Assembly (NCBI GenBank): GCA_022448725.1
Contig: JAKUTR010000006.1
Span: forward strand, 14,195 to 78,194
Direction: 5' to 3'
Source: SAR202 cluster bacterium
Lineage (GTDB): Bacteria > Chloroflexota > Dehalococcoidia > Lucifugimonadales > VXLM01
DNA: 64,000 nucleotides
The notes under the pieces were generated by a model. It saw only the letters and a list, made by a program, of their open reading frames with translations, was not told where the DNA came from and did not search any database. A program made the position numbers and the translations under genes. Of this stretch, positions 22,102 to 30,683 are shown in pieces (the first letter of the stretch is position 1; every line of letters begins with the position of its first letter).

Positions 22102-23637
22102 CTATATGATTGGCTGAGCTATTATCCAGAGACTGGTAGCTGTGTAGATTAGCATGAGGATCAGCATTGGGTACTGGGTTTTGATGGCGAGATTCGGGTT
22201 ACGCATACGACGCAAGGCAACCACATGTGCAATGTAAACAGACACTACATGACCGGTTACGATGGATAGGATCGAAACCCACCAAACGAACGTTGCAGAA
22301 ATAATGGTCAAATTGAGCCGGTAATCCGATGTGCCAAAGATATCCCAGCCAAATCCAAACGGATCTGATGCAAGCGGAATGAGCCCTTGGCCTTGGATAG
22401 CAAGTAGAGATACAAAGTGCGCTAGGTTATAAGCAAGCGCGATTGGGATTAATGAAAAGACAAAGGCCTTAGCGATATCGAAGGGAATATCCCCACGACC
22501 TTCTAGTTTTCCGATGAACCAAGAAAAGATTAAATAAACAGTCCAGAATATTATCTGTACGGCTAGTAGGCCCAAAGAGTCAACTACGTCAAATGGATCC
22601 CAAGGTAGAAACTTTACGATTGTAATAATGCTTGTCTGGATGTCCATCCAAGGAGCAGTCTCCGAAACCCCATCAAAGGTTACGGTACCTAGCATTAGGA
22701 CTACGAATATTGCCATTGAGGCTGTGACATTATGCTTATTGGTCAGCCCAATGGCGTATGGGCGGAGATTAAACTCTTGTGCTGAAGGTTCCGACCGCTC
22801 GAAGCATTCATAGCAGTCCACACAGTCCTCGGATTGAATCCCGCAATTACAGCACTCTCGGCAGACTCTCTGCCCTGTTACACGAATTTCTGAAGGGGAG
22901 AACCGTGCGAAGAGGCTAAATAGAATGGAGAAGGCTTCCCCATGTCTAAGCCAGGTATGTTTACCGAACGTGATCATGCCCGCCCATGTAATAGTCGAAT
23001 AGACCATTATCAGGATGCCCAGTCTTGAAGGGAGCGCTGCATCGTTATACACATTCTCCATCCAAGCAAAGATAAACAGTAGAATTAGCCCAGGCCATAC
23101 GCCAAGGCGATCAGGGTAGCTATACAAGCCGTTGTTTCCTTGGGCAGTGCCCATTGATGTCAGCTTCTCAACCCATTCGAAAATGATTTTCCATGGATTT
23201 AGCAGGTTCCATAGATTTCCAAATAGTGCGGATATATATCCCATCCCAACCCACCAAATGATCCATACAAAGACGACAGAAAAATTTTCAACGGGCCGGT
23301 TGACCCCTAAGAAAGCTGTGGCGAGGGTAAGGCCAAAGACCGCGATTGCTAGGATGCGGATAGCGATCAGTAAGGTGGGGTGGCGAAGTACTGAACCGAG
23401 AATAGGGATGGCGAATAAATTGAGCCTTGAGTAACGTAAATCGTGACTTGTATCTCGGACGAAGAATCCCAAAATGATAAAGGAAAGTAGTACAGTCGCA
23501 GCGGCCGCTAGGATAAAGTAATTCAGGGGTATTGGAAGATCGTACCGTTGCCCGAAGCCGTGTGCTGATACCGGGACTGCAATGCATGCAGTTGCCAATG
23601 CAACAGAGATAGCAGTAATTTTTCCCTTGAGGGTCAT
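22102..23637 (-). CDS. Polytopic membrane protein of unknown family with signal peptide, N-terminal His and a 7-Cys loop
   Basis: 511 aa, about 12 hydrophobic segments. Predicted signal peptide ending VSA followed by HGFGQRYDLPIPL. Loop VCRECCNCGIQSEDCVDCYEC. The start overlaps the stop of the CopCD gene by 4 nt (ATGA). Confidence 0.7.
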   Translation of the reverse strand: MTLKGKITAISVALATACIAVPVSAHGFGQRYDLPIPLNYFILAAAATVLLSFIILGFFVRDTSHDLRYSRLNLFAIPILGSVLRHPTLLIAIRILAIAVFGLTLATAFLGVNRPVENFSVVFVWIIWWVGMGYISALFGNLWNLLNPWKIIFEWVEKLTSMGTAQGNNGLYSYPDRLGVWPGLILLFIFAWMENVYNDAALPSRLGILIMVYSTITWAGMITFGKHTWLRHGEAFSILFSLFARFSPSEIRVTGQRVCRECCNCGIQSEDCVDCYECFERSEPSAQEFNLRPYAIGLTNKHNVTASMAIFVVLMLGTVTFDGVSETAPWMDIQTSIITIVKFLPWDPFDVVDSLGLLAVQIIFWTVYLIFSWFIGKLEGRGDIPFDIAKAFVFSLIPIALAYNLAHFVSLLAIQGQGLIPLASDPFGFGWDIFGTSDYRLNLTIISATFVWWVSILSIVTGHVVSVYIAHVVALRRMRNPNLAIKTQYPMLILMLIYTATSLWIIAQPII

Positions 23638-25892
23638 TCCAGCGTCCGTATGTAGTTGATAACGTGCCAGATTTGGTCGTCCGTTAAGCTATTCCCGAGA
23701 CCAGCCATAGAAGTGCCTTTAATACCGTCATGGATGAAGCTAAACAAGATCATATCTGGATGCAGCGGTACGTGTACTACAAGATCTGCCGGAGAAGGGT
23801 TTAGCGCTTCGGAGGATGGTCCATCACCTTTGCCTGAGATACCGTGGCAAGTTTGACATTTCTCAGTATAAACGGTAGAGCCAATCGTTAGGGATGCCTG
23901 ATCAGGCGGGAAAGGATTGCGTTCAGTTTTAGAAGGTTCGGCCAACTGCGCGTTGACGATTATAACGGAGCCGATAACAGCCACCGCGACCCCAGGAGTC
24001 ATAAAGCTAAGTCCTCGGTAGGAGTACCAGCCCCCGAGAGGTATACCGAACGCAAGCAACAATACGCCAATTGCTCCTAACTCCACACCCAGTAGTAGAA
24101 TGCCAGTTCCGGGGTCCGGGGTAAGAATAGAGCTTTTCGAGGACCCAATTCCCGGAATGCTAAAGCGAAATGCGGTCCGCGCATCAAAAGCATCTGGTCG
24201 CCGGACGGCTAATTCTATTTGGTAAGCTCCCTCGATGTTGAATTTACCGTCCTCGACGATGTAGGAGCCTTTACCAACGTGTTCAGCTTTCAAGTATGGT
24301 TCTCCGAAATCCGCGTCGAGGTAAGATATTCGGATGTCGACTCCAGTAGCATTTGTGACGGCATTGCCCTGACGGTCTCTTAGAGAGGCTGCGATGCGGT
24401 TTGAACCGATAGTTCCAGGGACTATTTCTAGGCTGATCTCAGTTCCTTCAACAGTGTCTTTAAATTCGAGAGTTTTACTAGTGCTAATTGCCTCGCGCGC
24501 AGCAACTTGCCGGGCTGGTTCTAGGCTTGTGAGGTAGCCAACTGTCAGCATTACAAACACCCCGATTAGGGCCTCCACAACGACAATCCGAGTTAGCCAC
24601 TTTGTGGCTCCGGGATGTTTCCGAACAGCTGGAGTAATCCATATTAAATTAATAGCGCCCAGGGAGATTAATAATCCGGTGAGGGTAGATTTGCCCAATA
24701 GTGTGAGGCCATACGGTGTACCTAAAGCAGGGATTATTGCTACCTGGGCCCATGCGCTAAATAAGCCCGTGATCACAAGTAGTCCAACACTCACGCCGGC
24801 AATTACCGAAAAACGCGGCAAGATGGCAGTTAGGAGTGCTTGACGTGGTGCAGGGTCCATAGTGAAGTAGCTAACTGAAGCTGTAAGTGCCAGTGAGAAT
24901 AGACCGCCAATCCAAAAAGAGGCTGCCAGTACATGAATGAAATCAGTGATCGTTGCAGGCAACCAAATACTCGATATTGCAGCAGCATGACTAGTCTTGC
25001 TTATCGTTAGTAAGGCGAGTCCTGCAGCAATAGCGCCAACAACCGGTAGGTATTTGTTTCTGGTTTTTCCTCTCCGGTGCTTGATAGCGTTAGTAGTCAC
25101 AATCGTGCCTAATGCCAATAGCAGCCAGAGGCGTTGGCTCCATGCTATACCCCAGTCTGTATTACCTAAAACAAATGAGATTGGCTCTCCAATTGCTTTG
25201 AAGAAGGAAACTTCGTATGCAGCTGATGCTTGTACTATCAGTGCCAGAATTGATCCTGCTAGTGCTATACACGTTCCCCCGATCAGTAGCCAATCAATAC
25301 AAGTGTCGAATTGATTAACCGTGTCTCGAGGTGTGCTAGGACGTAGTACAGTCATGACAAATAGCAGGCTTCCCAACACCGCCAGCAGGCCCGTTAAACC
25401 CATCCAGCGAGCAAATGGTTCGATGGGCGATTGAATTAGTGATGTCTGCGGGAGGTCAATAGGCTCACTTTTGGAAACTGAATCACCCACAAAGAATACA
25501 AAACTTCCTCGAATGGTATGTCCGTCGATTGTCGAGAGAGTTTTCCAACCAACGGTATAGGTGCCTTCCGGCAGCTGAGGCATGAGTGTAACGGAGATAA
25601 TGGTCGTGTCGTTAGCATCAACTGTACTGTCATCGTTATCGACTCGTTGGCCAGTGGAATTTAGAATCTGGATATAGCTACGCGATGGCTCTAGTTGCTC
25701 CGTAAACCAGATGGTGAGGCGTTCCGGGGGATGGCTAAGAACTGCGTTAGGCACAGGCTCCGAACGGACAAAATTTGAATGGCTAAAGGCAGTATCAGGT
25801 GTTAGCAGCAGCGTCGCCACAAAGGATGCGCCTATCGTGGCGACGTATACTTTCTTGAGAAGATTCATTTTGTCTTTCGGAGGTGGTCCCAA
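23634..25892 (-). CDS. CopC-CopD fusion protein with extra Ig-like (YtkA/FixH-like) domain and C-terminal class I cytochrome c
   Basis: After a signal peptide (..TAFS/HSNF), the CopC domain aligns by eye with PcoC/CopC (HS..SEP...LPEGTYTVGWKTLSTIDGHTIRGSFVFFV). A multi-TM CopD-like core follows, then a soluble beta-rich segment, two more TM segments and CQTCHG ... TSMAG (heme c with Met ligand). Start either TTG at 25892 or ATG at 25868. Confidence 0.85.
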   Translation of the reverse strand: MGPPPKDKMNLLKKVYVATIGASFVATLLLTPDTAFSHSNFVRSEPVPNAVLSHPPERLTIWFTEQLEPSRSYIQILNSTGQRVDNDDSTVDANDTTIISVTLMPQLPEGTYTVGWKTLSTIDGHTIRGSFVFFVGDSVSKSEPIDLPQTSLIQSPIEPFARWMGLTGLLAVLGSLLFVMTVLRPSTPRDTVNQFDTCIDWLLIGGTCIALAGSILALIVQASAAYEVSFFKAIGEPISFVLGNTDWGIAWSQRLWLLLALGTIVTTNAIKHRRGKTRNKYLPVVGAIAAGLALLTISKTSHAAAISSIWLPATITDFIHVLAASFWIGGLFSLALTASVSYFTMDPAPRQALLTAILPRFSVIAGVSVGLLVITGLFSAWAQVAIIPALGTPYGLTLLGKSTLTGLLISLGAINLIWITPAVRKHPGATKWLTRIVVVEALIGVFVMLTVGYLTSLEPARQVAAREAISTSKTLEFKDTVEGTEISLEIVPGTIGSNRIAASLRDRQGNAVTNATGVDIRISYLDADFGEPYLKAEHVGKGSYIVEDGKFNIEGAYQIELAVRRPDAFDARTAFRFSIPGIGSSKSSILTPDPGTGILLLGVELGAIGVLLLAFGIPLGGWYSYRGLSFMTPGVAVAVIGSVIIVNAQLAEPSKTERNPFPPDQASLTIGSTVYTEKCQTCHGISGKGDGPSSEALNPSPADLVVHVPLHPDMILFSFIHDGIKGTSMAGLGNSLTDDQIWHVINYIRTLE

Positions 25893-25912
25893 GGATTCTG
25901 CGAAATTTGAGA

Positions 25913-26974
25913 TTATGATCTTCTAGGAGCTAAGAACCAACTGGCAGCGCCGACAGCTACACCAATTATCCCTAGAATTACGCCAACGATTCCAATAGTT
26001 ATAGCTGTCGTGACACTCGTCGAGGCATCCGATGCTAGGTTTTCAGTGCCTCGGATACCAGCTTCAAGTTCACGTACACTTTTTACAGTATGCGGGAATT
26101 GCAAAACTGAGTGGGCCTGAACGTCATCAAAATCACCGCCTCCTCCCTTGGACATAAACGTCTCACTGATTTTGTGGCTTTCAATGGTTCCAAACAACCG
26201 GAGTTTGTACACACCTTGTGCCGTTGGGATCAATGCAGCACTGTAGTGACCCGGCTCTTGATGTACGGGGACGAGGTCCATGGTTCTTGAGATGTTTGTT
26301 TCGACATGAGTAATCTCGACCCTCAAAGTTGTCTCTAACCCCTCTACGGCTATTGTCGTAGAATCAGAATGTTCTTCGGGAGCCTTTCCCGATGTTATAG
26401 AAGATACCTTCTCGGTCTTATTGAGCCACATGATCTTGGTGCCAGGCTTAACATGCACTTCGCCATTGCGGTACCTATCCGGGTATATCTCGATCATAAC
26501 CATTTCGGAAAGGCCAGCGTTCTCTGAGACCTTAATTGAACCTACCATTTTGTGATCCAAATGGTTGTGGAACGGGATGGTCAGGCCTAGATAGTTATCT
26601 GAAGCGATAAATTCGAAGGTGCCCCCAGCGGGCAACGCAGAGTTAAATAAAGCCCCATGTGCTTCTACGCTATCCGATGTGGCCGCGTGGCCGTGTTCTT
26701 CGTGGGTTGAGTCATGTTGCTCTTGATGTCCGTGGTGCTCAGCATCATCCTTTTTTGTTACGCGTACAGAGATGCCATTCGGAATCCCTTCATATGCGGG
26801 CTCTTCCATGAATCCAACGGTTAAATTGTATTTACCAACTTCGCGTCCCTCGTGCGCAGTCGTGTCCTTGGTCAATGCCAATAGTAGTAGTAGGGTGATG
26901 ATGACAGGGGTACATTGTTTTAGCATTTGGGTTTCCTCAAAGTCTTGATATTTATTTTTTTCGTGCAGTCCCAT
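25913..26974 (-). CDS. Exported, C-terminally anchored His-rich multidomain protein (cupredoxin-like / Ig-like repeats)
   Basis: The likely true start is the ATG at 26926 (GAGGAA 6 nt upstream), giving signal peptide MLKQCTPVIITLLLLLALTKDTTA followed by HEGREVG. His-rich linker DDAEHHGHQEQHDSTHEEHGHAA. Segment FHNHLDHKMVGSIKV resembles a cupredoxin C-terminal loop lacking Cys. C-terminal TM anchor. Confidence 0.7.
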   Translation of the reverse strand: MGLHEKNKYQDFEETQMLKQCTPVIITLLLLLALTKDTTAHEGREVGKYNLTVGFMEEPAYEGIPNGISVRVTKKDDAEHHGHQEQHDSTHEEHGHAATSDSVEAHGALFNSALPAGGTFEFIASDNYLGLTIPFHNHLDHKMVGSIKVSENAGLSEMVMIEIYPDRYRNGEVHVKPGTKIMWLNKTEKVSSITSGKAPEEHSDSTTIAVEGLETTLRVEITHVETNISRTMDLVPVHQEPGHYSAALIPTAQGVYKLRLFGTIESHKISETFMSKGGGGDFDDVQAHSVLQFPHTVKSVRELEAGIRGTENLASDASTSVTTAITIGIVGVILGIIGVAVGAASWFLAPRRS

Positions 26975-27491
26975 GGCGACCTAAGGATGCACGGATGGCG
27001 AGTCCTAAAACCACCAGAAAAGCTGTTAAAGTCATCAGTGTAACGATTCCGGCGATTGGGCTAGCATTCTTGACAGTAACTTCGAAATCTGCCGAATACT
27101 GTTTTTCGATGCTTTGAACTGTGGTTGTAAAGGTCCAGATTCCCTCCTGGTCAACAACCGTGTTCACATCGTAGAATGTTGGGTCTTGAAGGTTTGTTGT
27201 CGCATGTATCGGGCCGATTTTCTCAGATCCCGATTCTGGTGGCGGCATACCACTCACAGTGACCGTTGCTCCAGTAATCAAGGTGTCGCTTGCGATTTCA
27301 GTTAAGCTAATCGTGATGTGTAGGTTACCCACTGAAGGGGTTCCGGGTATTGTTCCGAACGCAATTTCATAAGGACCAATGACCTTTGATTCAAAGGACA
27401 CAACCCGGCCATTGCCTAGCACCGTGCTAGGTCCGAACGCAATAACGGTTATAACAAATACGGTAACAAGCCGGAACAAGATACCTGTCAT
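26952..27491 (-). CDS. Exported beta-rich protein with C-terminal TM anchor (YtkA/FixH-like by appearance)
   Basis: 179 aa. N-terminal signal/anchor, soluble beta-strand-like middle (LHITISLTE...TVTVSG...WTFTTTV), C-terminal hydrophobic segment plus basic tail (GRHGTARKK). Confidence 0.6.
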   Translation of the reverse strand: MTGILFRLVTVFVITVIAFGPSTVLGNGRVVSFESKVIGPYEIAFGTIPGTPSVGNLHITISLTEIASDTLITGATVTVSGMPPPESGSEKIGPIHATTNLQDPTFYDVNTVVDQEGIWTFTTTVQSIEKQYSADFEVTVKNASPIAGIVTLMTLTAFLVVLGLAIRASLGRHGTARKK

Positions 27492-27545
27492 CTAAATATC
27501 ACCACTCTCACCTGAATCACTGTGGTAAGGCCGATTAAACGGAGA

Positions 27546-27926
27546 TTAAGCAGTGTTTTGGGGTGGTTGTGTTGGCCTGGGAAGGAATACTTCGTAAATC
27601 CTAGGGTTTATTGGAGAAGGCATAATAAACCCGACCGAGGGTTCGAAGTGAACCAAGTGCCTCGGATCATCCTTGTCTAAGGTGATTAACAAGCTACCTG
27701 CCGCAAGGCCATCGTAGGAGTAAATGGAGTCATTTGTAGGGGGAAGCGCTTCTGGTAGATGACTGTGTGGGCTGTTGTGATAATGCGAGTGCGGAGAGTT
27801 GGTAACTATATGGGTGTGATGAGGATGTCTTTCAGCGAAATGATGGTCTACTAATGGACCCACTGTAGGGAATAGTAGGGCACCGTATAGTGCCCAGGAG
27901 ATTGCTTGAAACAGGCGGTACCTCAT
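27546..27926 (-). CDS. Small membrane-anchored His-rich protein
   Basis: 126 aa. N-terminal hydrophobic segment, then DHHFAERHPHHTHIVTNSPHSHYHNSPHSH (13 His in 30 residues, tandem NSPHSH). Lies 36 nt downstream of the 596-aa gene. Confidence 0.6.
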   Translation of the reverse strand: MRYRLFQAISWALYGALLFPTVGPLVDHHFAERHPHHTHIVTNSPHSHYHNSPHSHLPEALPPTNDSIYSYDGLAAGSLLITLDKDDPRHLVHFEPSVGFIMPSPINPRIYEVFLPRPTQPPQNTA

Positions 27927-27962
27927 TCAGGTATGTTACCTTTCTCAAGCCTTCTGCATCGA

Positions 27963-29753
27963 CTATGCAGCGTAGAGTCCCAATCCAAGGTTTACGATCA
28001 TCTCATGAATAGGGAATCCCTCGGGCAGTTCAAATTGAATATTGGGCTCTACCGCCTGACGTCCCAGGCGTCCTGCAATTGCTGAAGCGAACTCTGACCT
28101 ATTGCCGATATGGGTTCCAGTTGTGACCACAGGTACTCTAGAGTTGAGTGTGTCCTGGATATCTGTAGTTCGGTTGGCTACCGCCACGGCCCGATCGGTG
28201 ATCTGAGATGGTCTTAGGGAGCCACTCTCCCAGTGGATCGACTGGTATGCAATTGGAACCCAATCATGGATCACTATAGCGTCACATCCGTCGGCAGCTA
28301 TCCAGATTATGAGTGCTTCTTGCATGTTGACTGCCCTGGCGATAGCAAAAGGACGTAATTCAAGTGCGTCGAGTTTGTACCCCGAACGATACACAACATC
28401 TGTGATTGATGAAACAGAACGGTTCGTTGCTGATACTATAAGCCAGCGTCCGATCTGTGACCGTCCGGGTAGGCGCGTCCAGTTCATTGTTACAAGCTCC
28501 GCTGGGATACCAAGAGTACGGGCGACTTCTCGGGAGAATATCGCCTCGGGATCAAGTTCTCGGGCGTTTGGCAATTCAACGTTGCTGAGAGCTGCCTGGT
28601 AGCCAGGCACAGCTGCTACTAGACGTGCGTGTGGCGCAGCGGACTCAGTAAGAACTTGGTCAAGGTTACGGGCCACTTTTTGGGTATCCTGTACAAGGCC
28701 AGCCAGGTATGATTCCAGTCCAAACTCGGTTATCGAATACGACATTACTTCGACTCCGCGCATAGACAACACCTTCAACTCGTTGTGTTCTAGAGTTAAG
28801 GTCGTTATCTCCTCGGGGGGAGAAGTGAAGATCCCTTCGATCAGTTTCCGCTCCCTGCCAGTCGAAGGAGCAGTTCTGTTTCGGAAGAAAACGGACAAGT
28901 TTCTTATTGAATCTGCCAAAGCATAAACCAACCCCCGTAACCTCAATGATAGATTTGATAGGTACTGTGTGGAGGTGCTACTCGCTTTGTTTGATAAGGT
29001 GGGTACAGTCGGATCAGTTTCCTGTGGTTGCCCGAATTCATGCGAAACTGGATCGGCTAAGTCAGGGTTTTCAACACCCCTGGTACTGTCACGTCTTTTT
29101 GCGAGTTGATTAAGCGCTCGAAGAAGTGCAGATTCTTCACTGGTTGCCTCCTCCGATTCTGATTTTTGGGATGAGCTTGTTTGAGTCTCAGCCGTTTTGT
29201 CTGGACTTGTCTTATCGCCAGATATGAGATGTTGTAATAACTCTAAGGCATCTTGCTGCTCAGGAACTCTTTCCTGATAACCTCGAGTGGGATCGTGGGA
29301 ACTGGAAGGATTTTCATTTGAATCAGAATCCAACTCCCCATCTGGACCCGGTAGATTTGGTGTGCCGAGAGATTCAGGATTTGGAACAGTGGTTGCTATG
29401 TGATCGTGTATATGATTTTGTGCTTTGGGTTCATCTGTAAGCTCTGTGGTGCATACCAAACACTGGAAGCTGTCACCCCTCTTCTCGTACAAGCCTAGGT
29501 CATAAAGTGTACGTGGATCGGATTGGTATCTGTTATGGAATTGATGAACCATCCATTCACTGATACCAAGGGCGTCTGCTATTTGATCAACCGACCATCC
29601 TTCAGTAAACCCCCAAAAAATAAACCGCTTCTCGTCGTCGTCTACCCAGCGGCCCTTTTCATGAGCGTCTCTAGTCGGTCCACCTCTTGCGAATCTTTCA
29701 TGTAGGGTTGGCTCTGACAAATGATCACCACAACAACCGAGATCTCCTAGCAC
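27963..29753 (-). CDS. Multidomain protein: HTH + C2H2-like motif + acidic/Ser-rich linker + PilM/actin-like domain
   Basis: 596 aa. HTH-like FTEGWSVDQIADALGISEWMVHQFHNRY. FQCLVCTTELTDEPKAQNHIHDH fits C-X2-C-X12-H-X3-H. About 150 aa of low complexity. The C-terminal approximately 300 aa shows a PilM-like pattern (LTLEHNELKVLSM..., AVPGYQAALSNVELP, LELRPFAIARAV). Confidence 0.7.
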   Translation of the reverse strand: MLGDLGCCGDHLSEPTLHERFARGGPTRDAHEKGRWVDDDEKRFIFWGFTEGWSVDQIADALGISEWMVHQFHNRYQSDPRTLYDLGLYEKRGDSFQCLVCTTELTDEPKAQNHIHDHIATTVPNPESLGTPNLPGPDGELDSDSNENPSSSHDPTRGYQERVPEQQDALELLQHLISGDKTSPDKTAETQTSSSQKSESEEATSEESALLRALNQLAKRRDSTRGVENPDLADPVSHEFGQPQETDPTVPTLSNKASSTSTQYLSNLSLRLRGLVYALADSIRNLSVFFRNRTAPSTGRERKLIEGIFTSPPEEITTLTLEHNELKVLSMRGVEVMSYSITEFGLESYLAGLVQDTQKVARNLDQVLTESAAPHARLVAAVPGYQAALSNVELPNARELDPEAIFSREVARTLGIPAELVTMNWTRLPGRSQIGRWLIVSATNRSVSSITDVVYRSGYKLDALELRPFAIARAVNMQEALIIWIAADGCDAIVIHDWVPIAYQSIHWESGSLRPSQITDRAVAVANRTTDIQDTLNSRVPVVTTGTHIGNRSEFASAIAGRLGRQAVEPNIQFELPEGFPIHEMIVNLGLGLYAA

Positions 29754-29914
29754 TATAGCTTAGGCTACTCATTACAAATAATAGTAGGCCTTTAGGCTTG
29801 GAGTGTGAAGGGATTTCCCGTATCTATTTGAGCGAGCGACTAAATTGGTCATATGGGCATCCTGAACATTTGCTAGCCTACAAGGTATATTATGTCTCCG
29901 TTCAGCATCGGAAT

Positions 29915-30000
29915 GCCCAGGTGGCGGAATGGTAGACGCGGCGGACTTAAAATCCGCTTCTCGCGAGAGAGTGGGGGTTCGAGTCCCTTCCTGGGCACCA
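29915..30000 (+). tRNA. tRNA-Leu (anticodon TAA), class II with long variable arm, encoded CCA
   Basis: Acceptor stem GCCCAGG/CCTGGGC. Anticodon stem GCGGA/TCCGC with loop CTTAAAA. Long variable arm CTCTC-GCG-GAGAG. T-loop GTTCGAGTC. 3' ACCA end at 30000. Confidence 0.9.
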
Positions 30001-30017
30001 GGTGTTTACGGAAAAAT

Positions 30018-30683
30018 ATGGAGGGTGTAATGAGTTCGAAAAATCTAATCGGTTGGGCATTAATCATTGGGCCGCTCTCTGCGTTCCTCTTTGGAGGTCT
30101 TTTGACTGGGATATTGATAGGGCCTGGAGAAACCGCTGCGGAAGCCGTCAGTGAAATGCAGGCAAAGATAGGACTGAAGTCTGTATTTACTATCTTAGGT
30201 AGCTTAGGATTTGTATTCGCTTTTATTGGGACTGTTTTACTGAGTAACTCGATGCGTGGCGATGGTAAACCAGGTAGTTTGTTAGCTAGTATAAGTACTG
30301 TTATTTTCATCGCACTTACAACGCTTGCGATGGCAGCGACAATGTCGGACTGGGCAGCACTGGGCTCTCTACAAAATGATAATTTGGATGCTGCAGCACA
30401 AATTAGTAATGCCGTTACAATAACGCTTGTAGGCAATGCGTTGTGGGCAGGCTTGTTCTTCTTCTGGGGTATTGGCTTCCTTACCTTAGGAACAGCTTTG
30501 GTTATGCAACGGAAATTGAACGTCATTGTAGACTGGATTTTTGTTGTGTTTGGAGCACTGTTTGTTATTCTGCTGCTTATGCCTTGGGACCTTGCACAAA
30601 ATGTAGGCTTCTTGATTTTCGGCGTAATGGTCCTAAACACTATCGCCGCTGGTGTATTCCAGCTCAGAGCAGATGAGAGCTAG
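30018..30683 (+). CDS. Integral membrane protein, unknown function (about 6 TM segments)
   Basis: The ORF-track entry 29892..30683 starts inside the tRNA. The first plausible starts after the tRNA are the ATGs at 30018 and 30030 (MSSKNLIGWALIIGPLSAFLF...). Hydrophobic throughout. Confidence 0.65.
   Translation: MEGVMSSKNLIGWALIIGPLSAFLFGGLLTGILIGPGETAAEAVSEMQAKIGLKSVFTILGSLGFVFAFIGTVLLSNSMRGDGKPGSLLASISTVIFIALTTLAMAATMSDWAALGSLQNDNLDAAAQISNAVTITLVGNALWAGLFFFWGIGFLTLGTALVMQRKLNVIVDWIFVVFGALFVILLLMPWDLAQNVGFLIFGVMVLNTIAAGVFQLRADES

Follow-up and report, generated by a model that had tools for sequence, protein, structure and literature searches.

PilM belongs to the alignment complex of the type IV pilus, where it is the cytoplasmic subunit with an actin fold; it is usually treated as a plain scaffold, and its gene heads the pilMNOPQ order. 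In the structures 2YCH and 5EOU, PilM clamps an INLLP-type motif at the N-terminus of its partner PilN. The protein analysed here combines a domain of this kind with parts that are foreign to canonical PilM. It is encoded in a stretch of 64,000 nucleotides from a SAR202 cluster bacterium (assembly GCA_022448725.1, contig JAKUTR010000006.1, positions 14,195 to 78,194), called the window throughout, where the longest open reading frame (ORF) at 27963-29753(-) reaches a GTG at 29753 and specifies 596 amino acids (aa); residue numbers refer to this ORF. A sequence-only reading of the ORF had described a helix-turn-helix (HTH), a Cys-Cys-His-His (CCHH) segment, a low-complexity linker and a PilM-like domain, and all four are present (Table 1). 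On balance, the evidence leans towards a relocated PilM that carries an HTH and C2H2-type module on an acidic tether, and that probably still functions at the pilus base. The claim that no described protein has this combination also holds in the searches made: full-text literature searches turned up no account of PilM joined to an HTH or a zinc finger, the one Chloroflexota paper among their results being on archaella, and Pfam gives HTH domains only.

The C-terminal 285 aa are homologous to PilM. Searched alone, the window protein has only sub-threshold matches in Pfam and NCBIfam, including TIGR01175 pilM (E = 1.2e-6, 27.7 bits against a cut-off of 133) and excluding Pfam PilM_2, which it does not match; a single-sequence phmmer search of the whole protein against the PDB gave nothing useful, and family profiles were required. 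In particular, a profile of 53 sequences, including the window C-domain, matches the PilM structures 2ych (1.2e-27), 3jc8 (2.9e-23) and 5eox (5.4e-16), with no family other than PilM in the PDB below an E of 0.5. Pfam PilM_2 matches 30 of the 53 members singly, the best at 2.7e-18. Moreover, a Foldseek search with the AlphaFold2 model places EutJ first (7e-9) and PilM chains at ranks 2 to 8 (1e-8 for 5eou and 5eq6, 2-3e-7 for 3jc8 and 2ych, with a target TM-score of about 0.52), and its FtsA matches (2e-6 to 4e-5) are weaker. The PilM/actin resemblance first noticed by eye is thus borne out at about 1e-27 by profile and about 1e-8 by fold. The model has a mean predicted local distance difference test score (pLDDT) of 57 over the whole protein, and mostly 55-87 in the C-domain.

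The domain is a reduced PilM. A stretch of about 60 residues matching 2ych 226-285 is missing and, judged from its position in the fold, would correspond to PilM subdomain 2B. The phosphate-2 pair D488-G489 is invariant in the near family, the phosphate-1 motif reads IEH(G/N), and the adenosine GGG loop has shrunk to T-G-T. Because this loop is reduced and the 2B region is missing, nucleotide binding is uncertain; the earlier suggestion of an ATP-dependent or polymerising module finds nucleotide motifs that are only partly kept and no 2B region.

The N-module (residues 12-122) opens with a conserved peptide, TLHERFxxGxPTR, and is predicted by AlphaFold2 to form a single compact domain (pLDDT 75-90 in the full-length model; mean 77.5 when modelled alone) that runs from three helices, the HTH, through two short strands to a ligand-bearing helix. 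Across a 20-sequence alignment, its mean column identity is 61%. In the finger region, the model has strands at 89-92 and 95-98 and a helix at 108-122, with a pLDDT of 80-88, so that the AlphaFold check proposed for the CCHH segment returns a strand-strand-helix arrangement. The segment itself is as originally read, F96-Q-C98-L-V-C101-x3-L-x5-A-x2-H114-x3-H118, with an aromatic residue two positions before the first Cys. Both Cys are present in 20 of the 20 N-modules and both His in 19 of them; the hydrophobic positions fit the classical psi-x-C-x2-C-x3-psi-x5-psi-x2-H-x3-H pattern, and the family consensus is Y-R-C-L-V-C-G-x-x-(I/V)-x5-(I/V)-E-R-H-x3-H.

Searched against the PDB, the N-module profile finds mostly classical C2H2 fingers as its best matches, aligned on the ligands. 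The whole-chain E-values (6e-5 for ZBTB20, 9e-5 for HIC2, 0.005 for CTCF and SALL4, and 0.075 for Zif268) sum several fingers, and those for single fingers are 0.2 or worse; the Pfam zf-C2H2 models match only five or six of the 20 members each, at E-values of 0.008-0.06. By its pattern, the motif is a predicted zinc-finger signature of the classical C2H2 type, with putative zinc binding. Ros/MucR proteins, the bacterial Cys2His2 regulators, have C-x2-C-x9-H-x3-4-H spacing within a larger beta-beta-beta-alpha-alpha domain. A finger of that type is ruled out by the x12 spacing and by the lack of any Ros/MucR match in the Pfam and PDB searches, in line with the difference in spacing that had been pointed out from the letters.

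The HTH portion is recognised most clearly at the level of the family. The window HTH scores 19-21 bits against cut-offs of 24-28 (Pfam HTH_23, HTH_29 and Sigma70_r4), and HTH_23 matches 19 of the 20 family N-modules, with a best E of 9.8e-8. The weak matches that Foldseek returns for the N-module are all DNA-binding HTH domains (sigma factor region 4, DosR, VpsT and a paired domain); the sigma factor match, 3hug (the SigL/RslA complex), has 32% identity over 60 aa and is non-significant. A fold search is poorly suited to so small a finger and so idiosyncratic a module. In addition, the N-module is found on its own on the metagenome contigs L034-L048 (for example, L043 725-1129 and L044 1-378), as a protein of 123-160 aa that ends in a tail rich in Lys and Arg; it is therefore an independent evolutionary unit. 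Five stand-alone copies (L031, L036, L037, L044 and L048) have beside them an opposite-strand ORF that is about 244-270 aa long and matches nothing in Pfam; among the neighbours of stand-alone N-modules, the only Pfam matches are to unrelated transposases.

The chemistry of the module differs between the window lineage and the rest of the family. The isoelectric point (pI) of the N-module is 9-10 in 13 of the 20 sequences and above 7.8 in 16, and outside the window lineage it spans 7.8-10.3 except for one sequence with a pI of 6.1; in the window lineage, meaning the window and its two closest relatives, it is 5.1-5.3 with a net charge of -5 to -8. The recognition helix, VNEATVRRFRxRF in most of the family, has become ISEWMVHQFHNRY in the window lineage with loss of its arginines; in the window, WMVHQFHNRY stands where the family consensus has ATVRRFRxRF, and the basic contact surface expected of recognition-helix Arg/Lys residues is absent. 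Histidines have been gained in this lineage (HQFHNRY, NHIHDH), for a total of seven in 111 residues. Therefore, the N-module of most family members looks like a basic, sequence-reading DNA-binding domain, whereas DNA binding by the acidic window protein, stripped of its recognition-helix arginines, is doubtful. The low dN/dS of its N-module (0.13; see below), a mark of strong purifying selection, indicates that the module still does something in this lineage, more probably the binding of a protein or a metal than of DNA.

Between the two domains lies the linker, which was present as described in the sequence-only reading and is longer than stated there, at about 190 aa measured instead of about 150. 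It has a pI of 4.8 and contains 27 Ser, 17 Glu, 16 Thr and 15 Pro; AlphaFold2 gives it a pLDDT below 50, with three short predicted helices. By domain coordinates, linker length spans about 170 to about 840 aa across the family, and the window linker is the shortest. The linkers of the main fused clade (P0004-P0009, P0012, P0015 and others) contain two helical repeats, WHxAFERLA in one or two copies and AEFERLR in up to two. Neither is kept in the window, where the aligned stretch is degenerate, ESALLRALNQLAKRR. In a separate pair of syntenic loci from metagenome-assembled genomes, L008 9851-10927 (358 aa) lacks the N-module and most of the linker that are present in L007 4568-7273 (901 aa); the difference reflects either a natural deletion or a collapse during assembly.

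An annotation or assembly artefact, in which two or three genes are read as one ORF, was considered, since both modules occur as independent proteins elsewhere and three long-read assemblies (L004, L005 and L058) have the fused gene called as three ORFs. These splits are confined to contigs with 2.8-12.7x coverage and are attributed to the frameshift errors that are common in low-coverage long reads. In contrast, the frame is single and uninterrupted in the window itself, in L001, L007, L032 and L033, and on five short-read contigs, independent of one another, that carry the close relative P0002. The fusion of N-module, linker and C-domain also recurs in 14 or more cluster representatives at identities of 30-40%. 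Measured against the 84%-identical L024, the window gene has a dN/dS of 0.13 in the N-module and 0.11 in the C-domain; the linker stands at 0.51 and has no stop across 189 codons. The unbroken frames and the conserved fusion effectively refute the artefact, which is exceedingly improbable. Overall, each of the three findings that the sequence-only reading had named as fatal turned out otherwise: the C-terminal part matches PilM, the CCHH residues are conserved, and the ORF is one gene.

The start of the protein is probably internal to the longest ORF. The TTG at 29718-29720 aligns with the M-[PS]-EPTLHERF starts of the close homologues P0002 and P0003, and GGTGATCAT precedes it. By this alignment, translation probably begins at the TTG at 29720, giving a product of 585 aa. 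A scan of 27400-30100 for promoters and terminators found no more sites than in shuffled sequence.

The relatives of the C-domain connect it to the pilus. At E ≤ 0.001, 811 representative proteins match the family profile, and the homologue survey that had been proposed finds the named loci confined to metagenome-assembled genomes of Dehalococcoidia, SAR202 or Chloroflexota, apart from a single fragment. This exception, L018 610-1113, is a partial C-domain homologue on a 7-kb contig binned as a Methanobacteriota archaeon, and is probably mis-binned Chloroflexota DNA. Among the top 160 relatives there are three architectures: stand-alone proteins of about 300 aa, C-terminally extended proteins and the HTH-finger-linker fusions. 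The C-terminal extension reaches 100 aa or more in 27 of the 160 (including P0082, P0120, P0124, P0129 and P0157), and five of the seven extensions that were read have an (N/D)ILP-type motif followed by a hydrophobic stretch and further extension, as expected of PilM-PilN fusions.

Further, 12 unfused homologues (L009-L015 and L019-L023) sit in one conserved type IV pilus cluster with the order PilB (T2SSE), PilC (T2SSF), PilN, PilO-like, the PilM-like protein, PilD (peptidase A24), a histidine kinase, a LuxR-type response regulator and pilins; L016 has a truncated and rearranged version. PilN is assigned because the profile of the cluster proteins matches M. xanthus PilN (5.7e-7, with the alignment starting at the INLLP motif), because Pfam PilN matches five of the 14 members, and because their N-terminus is conserved as WRxVPxINLLP. 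The conserved C-domain residues are common to these in-cluster forms and to the fused forms. By contrast, the fused genes lie outside pilus clusters in the window and in L001, L004, L005, L007, L024-L028, L030, L032, L033 and L058. Within the 64-kb window there is no PilB, PilC, PilN, PilO, PilD or pilin gene, as had been remarked. That the locus is not a pilus locus does not make its product foreign to the pilus: the closest unfused relatives of the C-domain are the pilM genes of Dehalococcoidia pilus clusters.

A complementary set of clusters lacks pilM. In L052, L054, L055, L056 and L057, the PilO-like gene is followed directly by PilD (in L056, on a 3.5-Mb circular contig, with an IS66 transposase between them), and a hidden Markov model of the C-domain has no match in these five loci, even at E ≤ 10. 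Their PilN proteins keep WRxVP(R/K)(I/V)(N/S)L(L/V), the PilM-binding motif. Insertion sequence elements interrupt several of these clusters, and PilC is split in L054, L056 and L057. The PilB proteins of the pilM-less clusters form one clade, with L011 nested inside and L009 next to it; this mirrors the neighbour-joining tree of C-domains, in which the main fused clade has L011 and L009 as its nearest relatives from within pilus clusters. Moreover, the pilM-less L052 and the fused-gene contig L004 come from the same sample, have coverages of 14.3x and 12.7x, and show a tetranucleotide correlation of 0.976, the highest among the compared loci and suggestive only. Finally, a scan of one genome per species found a single C-domain locus per genome, either fused or in-cluster.

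These observations are consistent with the following course of events. In the fusion-carrying lineage of Dehalococcoidia, pilM would have left the pilus cluster, and the relocated gene would have gained an N-terminal HTH, a C2H2-type finger and an acidic disordered linker. At the base of the pilus machine, the C-domain would still clamp PilN by its conserved cytoplasmic N-terminus (WRxVPxINLLP), and a C-domain clamped in this way would hold the N-module on a flexible acidic tether at the inner membrane face. Tethered to the pilus platform, the N-module would then most likely act in DNA binding or regulation, with access to DNA set by the engagement of PilM with the machine.

Several points weigh against this account. 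The C-domain model is moderate in confidence, with a pLDDT below 50 at residues 380-448, and the partial nucleotide motifs and absent 2B region mean that its behaviour may depart from that of canonical PilM. The PilB clade of the pilM-less clusters includes L011, which keeps an in-cluster pilM, and the fused proteins are not one clade in the neighbour-joining tree. The presence of a fused gene and a pilM-less cluster in the same genome is something we infer, and no type IV pilus genes were seen in the 64 kb of the window. Foldseek with the N-module alone gave no significant structural match (best E of 0.2), and the pI of 5.2 and net charge of -8 of the window N-module weaken a DNA-binding role in this protein.

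A paralogue of PilM might instead have been co-opted outside pili, for example as a membrane or cytoskeletal anchor that uses the HTH and finger to tie DNA to an actin-like scaffold, either in RacA-DivIVA-style chromosome anchoring or as an FtsA-like divisome tether; the pilM-less clusters would then be coincidental or independent of PilM. This is possible, though rather unlikely. The fused genes are never beside pilus genes, the 2B region is lost with the nucleotide motifs partly degenerate, FtsA is among the structural matches (2e-6), and the repeated WHxAFERLA/AEFERLR linker helices resemble docking motifs for a further partner. A DivIVA gene lies just upstream in L004, but this adjacency was seen only once. 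However, the PilN of pilM-less clusters keeps its PilM-binding motif, which implies that a PilM is encoded elsewhere; just one C-domain locus was found per genome in the species scan; and the conserved C-domain residues are shared between the fused and in-cluster forms.

The relocated, still pilus-bound PilM has a bolder version, in which a basal-body subunit of the pilus doubles as a tethered DNA-binding factor made of an HTH and a true C2H2 finger, an acidic, DNA-mimicking leash of 170-840 residues, and WHxAFERLA docking helices. This version is unlikely. It would fit two uses: the assembly state of the pilus could gate gene expression by sequestering or releasing a transcription factor, or the N-module could receive incoming DNA during pilus-mediated uptake. 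In such a picture, the window lineage would be derived, its N-module having exchanged DNA for a different ligand, perhaps a metal in view of its gained histidines and copper-gene neighbours.

These neighbours lie downstream of the fusion gene and are genuinely related to copper. They encode a 752-aa CopC-CopD-cytochrome c fusion, two His-rich proteins (one of 353 aa with a membrane anchor at its C-terminus, the other of 126 aa) and a 179-aa YtkA-like protein; the three proteins other than the CopC-CopD-cytochrome c fusion have no significant family match. The sequence-only reading had placed the fusion gene at the head of this cluster and suggested that it could be a regulator or scaffold, taken here as one that would control the copper operon. 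The gene is co-directional with it and, as that reading stated, ends 36 nt upstream of the His-rich gene; the arrangement is kept in 84%-identical marine relatives, and the histidines gained by the window-lineage N-module could hint at metal binding. However, a relative at 84% identity is too close for its gene order to be meaningful, the adjacency was seen only in marine relatives at least 84% identical, and the gene tables of the more distant homologues L001-L005 and L058 contain no copper genes (at the other fused loci, the check covered pilus genes alone). The N-module is acidic, with the recognition-helix arginines lost, and there is no similarity to known copper sensor families: Pfam and NCBIfam gave no match to CueR/MerR, CsoR, CopY or ArsR-type proteins, and CzrA and SmtB appeared only as non-significant HTH matches (E 0.26-0.6). 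Membership of a copper sensor family known to these databases is thereby ruled out, control of the copper operon is improbable, and the copper adjacency is specific to the lineage and not the function of the family.

On the other side of the gene, the divergent tRNA-Leu(taa) is the only neighbour conserved beyond close relatives. In L001 and L005 it is adjacent to the homologue, whereas in L004 the two are about 3 kb apart, with three genes between; the N-terminal extension of P0004 is a translated tRNA-Leu(taa). In the window, an ORF at 29873-30640(-) and the 5′ end of another at 29892-30683(+) overlap the tRNA and are spurious or over-extended. In L001, L002 and L004, an island with an integrase, an HTH_17 protein and a primase/AAA protein lies on the far side of the tRNA, which is therefore an integration hot spot in relatives. 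A defence or mobile-element gene was rejected as an identity for the fusion, these islands being beyond tRNA-Leu on the side away from the gene.

Table 1. Positions of the fusion gene, its parts and its neighbours in the window, with one pilM-less cluster for comparison (L052 is numbered on its own locus).
Feature	Position	Strand	Description	Basis
Probable coding sequence	27963..29720	-	585 aa + stop; HTH-C2H2-linker-PilM fusion	Homologue start alignment; ORF list; dN/dS <1 in all three regions
N-module	29388..29720	-	Residues 12-122; TLHERFxxGxPTR peptide, three-helix HTH, beta-beta-alpha finger	AlphaFold2; 20-sequence alignment
HTH	29526..29633	-	Residues 41-76, EKRFIFWGFTEGWSVDQIADALGISEWMVHQFHNRY; HTH_23 / sigma-70 region 4 / LuxR type	Pfam; Foldseek
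C2H2-type motif	29400..29468	-	F96-x-C98-x2-C101-x12-H114-x3-H118	Alignment; AlphaFold2; profile search
Linker	28821..29387	-	Residues 123-311, about 190 aa; disordered, acidic, Ser/Thr/Pro/Gln-rich	pLDDT; composition
C-domain	27963..28820	-	Residues 312-596 + stop, 285 aa; 'mini-PilM'	PDB profile; Pfam; Foldseek
C-domain motifs			IEH(G/N) 320-323; AVPGYQ 381-386; ELPNA 393-397; LRPFAxARA 466-474; ADGCDA 487-492 (residue numbers)	
Copper-handling gene set	23634-27926	-	Downstream of fusion gene, co-directional	
tRNA-Leu(taa)	29915-30000	+	Divergent from fusion gene	
pilM-less cluster L052	8001-17725			

In a whole clade of Dehalococcoidia, abundant and uncultured organisms of marine and subsurface habitats, pilM appears to have been moved away from the pilus operon. 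Should the C-domain still dock on PilN, the fusion would provide a built-in physical link from the pilus machine to DNA or gene control. The N-module is among the few bacterial domains with the exact classical C2H2 signature, conserved across its family and also found as a stand-alone protein, and its finger bears on the occurrence of classical zinc fingers outside eukaryotes. In annotation, about 800 'hypothetical' proteins can be called PilM-like with the family profile, which also flags pilus clusters that seem incomplete only because pilM lies elsewhere.

Compared with the described PilM proteins (T. thermophilus 2YCH, P. aeruginosa 5EOU/5EQ6 and M. xanthus 3JC8; PF11104, TIGR01175), the C-domain has a homologous actin-like ASKHA fold, unfused family members within pilus clusters, and a partner PilN with an INLLP-type motif. 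It differs in length, with about 285 aa against 350-380 in canonical PilM, and in gene order, which is pilN-pilO-pilM in the unfused clusters instead of pilM-pilN-pilO; in addition, the window protein is encoded outside a pilus cluster and has an N-terminal extension of about 300 aa that is foreign to canonical PilM. The apparent PilM-PilN fusions of other Chloroflexota-type relatives carry the same mini-PilM domain and indicate that it tolerates fusion and that its partner is PilN, but they join it at the C-terminus to a membrane protein, whereas the window protein has a soluble HTH and finger joined to its N-terminus by a linker. FtsA belongs to the same branch of the actin superfamily as PilM; however, it has no sequence-profile match to the C-domain family, no division genes were seen in the returned gene tables of homologues, and the unfused family members lie in pilus clusters.

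The finger shares its spacing, conserved ligands and predicted strand-strand-helix order with the classical C2H2 fingers of Zif268, CTCF and ZBTB proteins, but it is a single finger packed against a bacterial HTH and not part of a tandem array. Ros/MucR likewise has a bacterial Cys2His2 DNA-binding motif, with a spacing of x9 there and x12 here. For the proposed gating, the nearest parallels are Mlc, which is held by the glucose transporter PtsG, and PutA, both regulators gated by sequestration at the membrane. The parallel would be one of function only, with no homology, in that access to DNA depends on membrane docking; those systems use a separate regulator and anchor or a single enzyme, while here the anchor would be a structural subunit of the pilus.

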